A DNA stretch of 20,294 bases, taken from positions 1 to 20,294 of the forward strand of contig JBIJCC010000154.1 in assembly GCA_044344875.1 (NCBI GenBank), in the 5' to 3' direction. Positions 1-536 of the stretch are shown here, piece after piece (position 1 is the first letter of the stretch; each line of letters opens with the position of its first letter). Position numbers and translations under genes: made by a program. Origin of the DNA: Nannocystaceae bacterium (GTDB taxonomy: Bacteria > Myxococcota_A > Polyangia > Nannocystales > Nannocystaceae). A model generated the notes under the pieces. The model was not told the DNA's origin. It ran no database searches and saw only the letters and a program-made list of their open reading frames with translations.

Positions 1-5
1 GCCGT

Positions 6-122
6 GGATCAGTTCTGCCGAACCGGACTGGATCAGTTCTGCCGAACTGGACTGGATCAGTTCTGCCGAACTGGCCCTGGATCAGTTCTGCCGAACTGGC
101 CTGGATCAGTTTAGCCGGGCTG
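6..122. repeat. 24-bp direct tandem repeat, 4 near-perfect units (ggatcagttctgccgaactggact/ggcct) plus a degenerate 5th; each unit has a GATC
   Basis: Direct reading: units start at 6, 30, 54, 79 and 103. The array runs to the window edge, so it may extend further left. Confidence 0.9.
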
Positions 123-137
123 TCACACGCAAGGGGC

Positions 138-536
138 TTACGATTGCGCTTGCACGCCCTCGACCGCCGAGAACACGAACACCGCGCCGTCGAGCACCCG
201 CAGCGAACGTTCGACCTCGATGGTGAAGTCGGCGTGGCCGGGGGTGTCGATGATCGTGATGGCGTGGTCGCGCCACGACACGCGTGTCGCCGCCGACTTG
301 ATGGTGATGCCGTGGGCCTTCTCGGCCTTGGTGCTGTCCATCGTCGCGCCACGACCGTCGCGGTCGTGGACCTCGCCGATGCGGTGGATCCGCCCGGTGT
401 AGAAGAGGATCCGCTCGGTGAGCGTGGTCTTGCCCGCGTCGACATGGGCCGAGATGCCGATGTTGCGCAGGGTGTGCACCGTCTGTACGGATTGTACGGC
501 GGCGGTCGCGGAACGCAGGACTGGAGTTGTGGTCAT
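138..536 (-). pseudogene. fusA: Elongation factor G N-terminal G-domain fragment (about 130 aa of an expected ~700), 3'-truncated
   Basis: The translation [24 protein letters not shown]...[37 protein letters not shown] matches the EF-G G1/G2/G3 motifs. It stops right after the equivalent of AVGGVQPQS, before the NKMD (G4) motif, and no downstream frame continues the EF-G sequence. Confidence 0.85.

Follow-up and report, generated by a model that had tools for sequence, protein, structure and literature searches.

A repeat array beside a truncated EF-G gene in a Nannocystaceae contig, read as a nested insertion sequence junction

Plasmid iterons are protein-binding tandem direct repeats of ~22-24 bp, and insertion sequences of the IS21 family generate a short target-site duplication of 4-8 bp. 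Multiple direct repeats are also present at the ends of IS21-family elements, where they are designated L1/L2 and R1/R2 and lie 23 bp apart; integration requires two complete repeats per end, each IstA subunit contacts one repeat through its tandem HTH domains, and the ends terminate in the dinucleotide CA (PMC10122671). Several transposase-binding copies per end, in unequal numbers on the left and the right, are found in phage Mu (L1-L3 and R1-R3) and in Tn7 (TnsB sites) (PMC10122671). The hallmarks of the IS66 family are an inverted repeat starting with GTAAGCG and 8-bp direct repeats (PMC11946415).

In this work, the beginning of a window of 20,294 nucleotides was analyzed, the window being the whole stretch of DNA under study (Nannocystaceae bacterium, assembly GCA_044344875.1, contig JBIJCC010000154.1, positions 1 to 20,294 of the forward strand). 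An earlier note on this DNA had described a truncated EF-G gene next to an array of 24-bp repeats and had offered several explanations for it: a rearrangement or insertion junction, an island boundary, an iteron-like protein-binding array, or a VNTR. The junction reading was correct in kind. The locus is most probably (about 0.92) a nested junction of two insertion sequences, in which an IS66-family element split a second-locus EF-G gene and an IS21-family element then inserted into the tip of IS66. So read, the locus is ordinary mobile-element damage; it represents neither an origin nor the edge of an island nor a novel repeat class. The features concerned are as follows.

Window 1..127, minus strand: outermost 127 bp of the terminal inverted repeat on the istA side of the IS21-family element (extension in contig L002, second copy in contig L005, TGT...ACA termini in relatives)
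Window 5..120, minus strand: five direct repeats at a period of 24/25 bp, taken as predicted IstA-binding sites L5 to L1 (Tandem Repeats Finder and 19-mer search)
Window 5-23, 29-47, 53-71 and 78-96, minus strand: perfect repeat cores; window 102-120, minus strand: terminal unit with 4 mismatches (19-mer search)
Window 128..141, minus strand: 14-bp tip of an IS66-family terminal inverted repeat, GTAAGCCCCTTGCG (13/14 match to the other IS66 end on contig L091)
Window 142..149, minus strand: a single copy of the 8-bp target-site duplication attributed to IS66, GCGCAATC (counterpart next to the other IS66 end, at L091 1139-1146)
Window 142..536, minus strand: 5' portion of the EF-G gene, codons 1-131 plus 2 nt (protein-family matches; 93-97% nucleotide identity to intact alleles up to window 141)

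The repeat array and its IS21-family element

Tandem Repeats Finder reported a period-24 array at window 5-111 (4.4 copies, 95% matches, score 184). Perfect copies of the 19-mer TGGATCAGTTCTGCCGAAC start at window positions 5, 29, 53 and 78; this 19-mer occurs nowhere else in the window and was matched in 0 of 100 shuffled sequences. The fifth unit (102-120) is degenerate, with four mismatches, and runs into TGTCACA at 121-127, which is the terminus of the element. The five repeats together span window 5-127 and are separated from the EF-G sequence by 14 bp. GATC is present in each of the five units, and the description of at least four 24-bp direct repeats, each with a GATC and no more than ~15 bp from the truncation point, was accurate. 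The additional claim that the array runs to the window edge holds in that the repeats reach the edge, but the array is essentially complete there and ends 2 bases past position 1 in contig L002. A role of the GATC as a Dam site was considered and rejected: many related elements read CTGACC at that position, and the GATC is therefore regarded as incidental.

An exact-protein look-up of the 132-aa EF-G product led to six metagenome contigs. Of these, L001 terminates at window position 1 and L003 at position 18; L002 matches window 1-1549 with 100% identity and extends beyond position 1 into istA and istB. The istA gene (L002 1701-3248), which starts about 150 bp past the array, encodes 516 aa with the Pfam domains rve and Mu-transpos_C_2 and scores 246.3 bits against the IS21 transposase model NF033546 (cutoff 160). 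The istB gene (L002 3238-4011), which overlaps the end of istA by 14 nt, encodes 258 aa and scores 261.7 bits against the IstB helper ATPase model NF038214 (cutoff 200), with a Pfam IstB_IS21 match at E 2e-68. Three inverted copies of the repeat lie downstream of istB (4030-4053, 4116-4137 and 4139-4159). Extension to the left, which had been recommended as a check, thus assigned the array to an IS21-family element with istA and istB beyond position 1; the possibility that the repeats are part of a coding region was also checked, and they were found to be non-coding and to belong to the IS21 terminal inverted repeat.

The element occupies L002 1423-4166 (2,744 bp) and has the ends TGTGACAG...CCTTGACA (TGT...ACA), which were set by the divergence of flanks among L002, L005 and L004 and are common to nine relatives. 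A second copy with other flanks is present in L005 (96.4% identity over 2751 bp, the same five units); its homology spans L002 1422 (= window 128) to 4170, i.e., one and four bases outside the ends. Since the element is fixed as L002 1423-4166, window 1-127 is the outer part of its istA-proximal end, with the terminus reading TGTGACA on the minus strand (window 127->121), and the rest of the element (istA, istB and the right end) lies past window position 1. By gene, terminus and repeat criteria the element belongs to the IS21 family, and the 24/25-bp repeats are reiterated units of its left terminal inverted repeat. The best reading of the five units, by analogy with described IS21 ends, is that of putative IstA-binding sites.

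A scan of the genome collection with the repeat unit gave a single match, a remnant in a Nannocystaceae metagenome-assembled genome (MAG). This is a solitary 165-bp IS21 left end with five units and without istA in the MAG SSF46 (L004 495-657, JAIBBS010000043.1). The host lineage of the elements is only indicative, because this remnant is the sole match in the genome collection. The complete ends of two uncatalogued insertion sequences from Nannocystaceae-like myxobacteria are now given.

To describe the array in related elements, 36 loci encoding IstA relatives (50-98% identity) were inspected for repeat units. Three to six tandem units upstream of istA, i.e., at least three, were found in 18 of the 36 loci, at a spacing of 23-25 bp or a multiple thereof, one of these 18 loci having a 33-bp step; a further 11 of the 36 have two units, at 23-25 bp or twice that. 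Inverted copies downstream of istB are present in 20 of the 29 loci having units. The same architecture is found in relatives at 50-69% IstA identity, where the unit is a variant of (G)TTCGGC(A/C)(G/A)AACTGA(T/C)C, many elements reading CTGACC, and nine relatives have the terminal TGTCAC.../TGTCAAGG... inverted repeat in common. The count of units, five at the left end and 2+1 at the right, is mildly unusual, yet normal for this IS21 clade.

Compared with IS21 and IS5376, the element shares the order of istA and an overlapping istB, the size of ~2.7 kb and termini of the form 5'-TG...CA-3'. As in IS5376, its inverted repeats consist of reiterated direct repeats with a spacing of roughly two turns of the helix (24/25 bp, against 23 bp in IS5376). 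Their number, five at the left end and 2+1 at the right, differs from the two per end that are described as typical of and sufficient in IS5376. The unit sequence here, CCAGTTCGGCAGAACTGATCCA, also differs, and no target duplication is visible in the two copies found. With Mu and Tn7 the element has in common the principle of multi-site ends with unequal numbers on the left and the right, binding being predicted here; it differs in its proteins, which are IstA and IstB according to equivalog models, and in its lack of cargo. A Tn7-like or Mu-like end, proposed in view of the TGT terminus and the multiple sites, was ruled out by the istA and istB equivalog matches.

By analogy with IS5376, each unit would be bound by the N-terminal HTH domains of IstA, which would synapse both ends to form a transpososome. 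The two units nearest the tip would probably be the essential pair, and the inner three, which lie 100-150 bp ahead of istA, may strengthen binding or have a regulatory effect on istA. A more far-reaching proposal is that the left end of this clade has grown to five or six phased IstA sites, two being enough for IS5376, and that the extra three or four sites, situated between the essential pair and the istA start, form an operator-like autorepression array or the nucleus of a higher-order Mu-like complex. We regard this proposal as speculative and rather improbable; if true, the role of the extra sites would be a regulatory layer undescribed for IS21. The conserved arrays of 3-6 units could be of interest for studies of how IstA reads multi-repeat ends.

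No target duplication was found around the IS21 copies in L002 and L005, either at lengths of 4-8 bp or with the ends shifted by one base. Most related IS21 elements in metagenome contigs with both flanks readable are likewise without one; one relative (L037/L039) has the 6-bp target duplication GTCAGG. The right flank in L002 (4167-4559) is an unrelated FKBP-type isomerase gene with its called start inside the IS end, and the right flank in L005 (4957-5151) resembles, by our own reading, the C-terminus of an IS91-type transposase. Both IS21 copies may lie in or beside other mobile DNA.

The interrupted EF-G gene and the IS66-family element

The EF-G 5' fragment is a 132-codon ORF at window 138-536 (minus strand), as had been claimed for a gene cut off after about 130 codons, ahead of the G4 motif. 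Its product matches positions 2-109 of 188 of Pfam GTP_EFTU (E 2.6e-42), and the best NCBIfam model is EF-G TIGR00484 (positions 7-116 of 691). The score of 182.9 bits is below the whole-protein cutoff of 659.4, which leaves the fragment outside the equivalog. Only the G domain up to G3 is retained, including G1 (AHVDAGKT) and G3 (DTPGH), and the stop lies 19 residues short of the NKMD G4 motif present in intact alleles. The predicted 132-aa product lacks G4 and G5 and therefore cannot work as a GTPase, in agreement with the earlier note. According to tblastn with longer EF-G proteins, the homology ends exactly at window 141; with these proteins and an intact allele, no G4-containing continuation was found in any frame at the junction or elsewhere in the window. 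The GC3 of the split gene is 0.88, similar to that of host genes.

Alignment with intact alleles at the DNA level demonstrated that the window leaves EF-G sequence 14 bp before the IS21 terminus, in the order ...CAAGCGCAATC, GTAAGCCCCTTGCG, TGTGACAG. The missing part of the gene was found on another metagenome contig, L091, which carries in this order tnpA, tnpB, the start of a third gene, an IS66 end ...CGTAAGGGGCTTAC, the octamer GCGCAATC and EF-G sequence starting GATCGCCGTC... (the intact 3' 576 codons). The suggested search for the 3' part thus succeeded: the EF-G ORF does not continue in place, but its undamaged remainder is present behind an IS66 end. The 14-bp segment GTAAGCCCCTTGCG is the same at 13 of 14 bases as this other IS66 end (reverse complement GTAAGCCCCTTACG), both starting with GTAAGC. 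The TAA within the tip (window 138-140) is the stop codon of the truncated EF-G ORF, and the 11-mer GTAAGCCCCTT from the tip occurs once in the window. Because the 14 bp are an IS66 tip and the 8-bp duplication brackets IS66, the truncation is attributed to IS66 and not to the repeat-bearing element; the latter is nested 14 bp inside the IS66 tip.

The empty site is represented by nine contigs from other samples with an intact EF-G gene at the same locus (L085-L090 and L093-L095). Where their reach allows, these contigs have a common gene order: ECF sigma factor, 312-aa gene, MVP-like, NADAR, 143-aa lipoprotein, EF-G, HTH_1 and M24 peptidase. The window is 93-97% identical to the intact alleles at the nucleotide level, always up to window 141, and the identity of L091 always starts at its position 1139. 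On the intact allele the two homologies overlap by 9 bp (L085 6331-6339), which corresponds to the 8-bp duplication plus one unassignable base. When window 536->142 is joined to L091 1147-2896, an ORF of 714 codons without internal stop is restored, 697/714 identical to the intact allele P0128. This allele scores 789 bits against TIGR00484 (cutoff 659.4), and since it passes the equivalog cutoff, the ancestral gene was an EF-G family member and the window fragment is its remnant.

The 90% cluster of the EF-G fragment contains full-length proteins of 695-714 aa and a 576-aa product starting just past the break, the latter being encoded on L091 and on L092. Contigs L091 and L001 are from the same JGI sample. 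The window and L091 probably derive from one genome, given the shared sample, the matching duplication, the similar identity to relatives (93-97% for the window and ~94% for L091) and the listing of their products from the same sources. The EF-G paralogue is assigned to a second locus because it lies outside the ribosomal-protein (str) operon. Its function appears to have been lost in this lineage, and this loss suggests that the second-locus gene is dispensable there.

The IS66 element was seen in part: 1.1 kb at its tnpA end and 14 bp of the opposite tip. TnpA scores 36.1 bits against NF047593 (cutoff 28) and TnpB 89 bits against NF033819 (cutoff 50). These matches, the GTAAGC start of the inverted repeat and the 8-bp duplication are shared with the IS66 family, which has the gene order tnpA-tnpB-tnpC. 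In contrast to that family, one tip is interrupted by IS21, and the gene in the tnpC position is represented by its first 117 aa on the contig, an unassignable N-terminus with no family match. Five 21-nt tandem repeats, corresponding to protein heptad units, are present in the N-terminal part of this third gene (L091 154-282), within which L091 ends.

Proposed history and alternative readings

In the proposed sequence of events, an IS66-family element would have interrupted the 714-codon EF-G paralogue after codon 131/132, duplicating the 8 bp GCGCAATC, and the GTAA at the start of its inverted repeat would have created the EF-G stop codon. A 2,744-bp IS21-family element would later have inserted within the IS66 inverted repeat, at a distance of 14 bp from the tip. 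The simplest order appears to be an insertion of IS66 followed by that of IS21. Short-read assemblers would then have broken inside the IS21 repeat, so that the window starts there. An assembly break is the best explanation both for the start of the window and for two further contig ends located in the array or at its edge, and the IS21 repeat accounts for the interruption of several assemblies at this point.

An insertion of the IS21 element alone into EF-G would be simpler and would agree with the location of the IS21 end just 14 bp from the last EF-G base. However, the 14 intervening bases are not EF-G sequence and match at 13/14 positions the IS66 inverted repeat flanking the 3' half of the gene, and the 8-bp duplication brackets IS66, not IS21; we consider such a single insertion very unlikely. 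The chances are slighter still, close to negligible, that the repeats form an iteron-like or partition-site array of a plasmid or integrative element at an island boundary. Evenly spaced direct repeats about two helical turns apart, each with a GATC, are known from some replication origins, but no Rep or partition (Par) gene follows the array, its neighbours being istA and istB, and there is no origin context. Unlike iterons, the repeats reappear in inverted orientation at the opposite end of a transposable TGT...ACA segment of 2.7 kb, and dozens of unrelated contigs have the same arrangement around istAB, many of them without GATC. What stands of the iteron-like proposal is a mobile-element array with predicted protein binding; the array represents one terminal inverted repeat of an IS21-family element, and is neither a plasmid or ICE iteron set nor an island boundary. 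As improbable as the iterons is a hypervariable minisatellite (VNTR) or a contig-end assembly artefact. In its favour, the array occupies the extreme end of the window, and two further contigs stop inside the array or at its border; against this, four independent assemblies have the same sequence, one of them reading through it, and the diverged second copy (96% identity) has the same five units, which disposes of the VNTR suggestion.

A greater, though still minor, share of the probability belongs to a rearrangement subsequent to the nesting of the elements: two IS21 copies may have recombined, or IS21 may have mediated a deletion or an inversion, so that the EF-G 5' fragment came to lie beside a distant FKBP locus, in which case the arrangement in L002 would be real. 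The IS21 right end in L002 abuts the FKBP gene, which is absent within 6 kb of the ancestral locus, without target duplication, and the L005 copy likewise has none. In none of the recovered contigs was the IS21 right end seen joined to the remaining IS66. On the other side, five of the six junction contigs stop inside or just before the IS, suggesting a multi-copy repeat that assemblers could not bridge, and a short-read contig across a 2.7-kb multi-copy IS can join the flanks of different copies; the prevailing lack of duplications in related elements with both flanks readable fits the same artefact. The absence of duplications in L002 and L005 thus reflects either short-read contigs that are chimeric across IS copies or real IS-mediated rearrangements. 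Such a rearrangement, which we hold to be possible but doubtful, is a later step added to the nested insertion of IS21 into IS66 and leaves the identity of the array unaffected.

Neighbouring features of the window

A perfect 13-bp tandem repeat, TTTCAGTTCTGAG (x2.2, window 1215-1242), covers both stop codons where the lipoprotein gene and the NADAR remnant converge, and has the octamer CAGTTCTG in common with the IS21 unit, probably by chance. NADAR is represented in the window by a 72-aa ORF for its C-terminus only. At window 1359-4831, 3.47 kb replaces 535 bp of related strains, comprising the N-terminal 150 NADAR codons and a spacer. The replacement segment contains a gene for HD-CE (4293-4598, minus strand) and one for HD-CE plus HATPase (2098-4296, minus strand). 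The GC3 of these HD-CE genes (0.58-0.60) is below that of host genes (0.82-0.94), and the segment is therefore probably a recently acquired cassette. It also contains a DDE transposase-like remnant ORF (1688-2089, plus strand; RVIGDRAYDSNAFDNELLEEFGVKLISPHR) with weak IS5/IS982 matches (E about 0.008).

A decayed EF-G-like piece at window ~1350-1618 (minus strand) is equivalent to residues ~540-624 of the intact gene, in domains IV/V. It is 73.6% identical at the nucleotide level over 193 bp, has an 8-bp insertion and a frameshift, and adjoins the NADAR breakpoint at 1358. This piece was rejected as the missing 3' part of the split gene, the true 3' part being intact on L091, and also as a recent copy of that gene, the divergence being too great.

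No match to Rfam or tRNA models was obtained anywhere in the window. At window 4822-7320 (minus strand) lies a gene for an 832-aa protein with major-vault-protein Shoulder and Vault_3 repeat domains, which has the same position in all related strains. Two large paralogous genes occupy window ~11100-19200 (plus strand), with stretches of 71-80% identity (11580-12057 versus 16852-17380), and the ORF at 13765-19170, which covers the second of these stretches, contains a Ser/Thr protein kinase domain. Large paralogous genes with such kinase domains are typical of myxobacteria.
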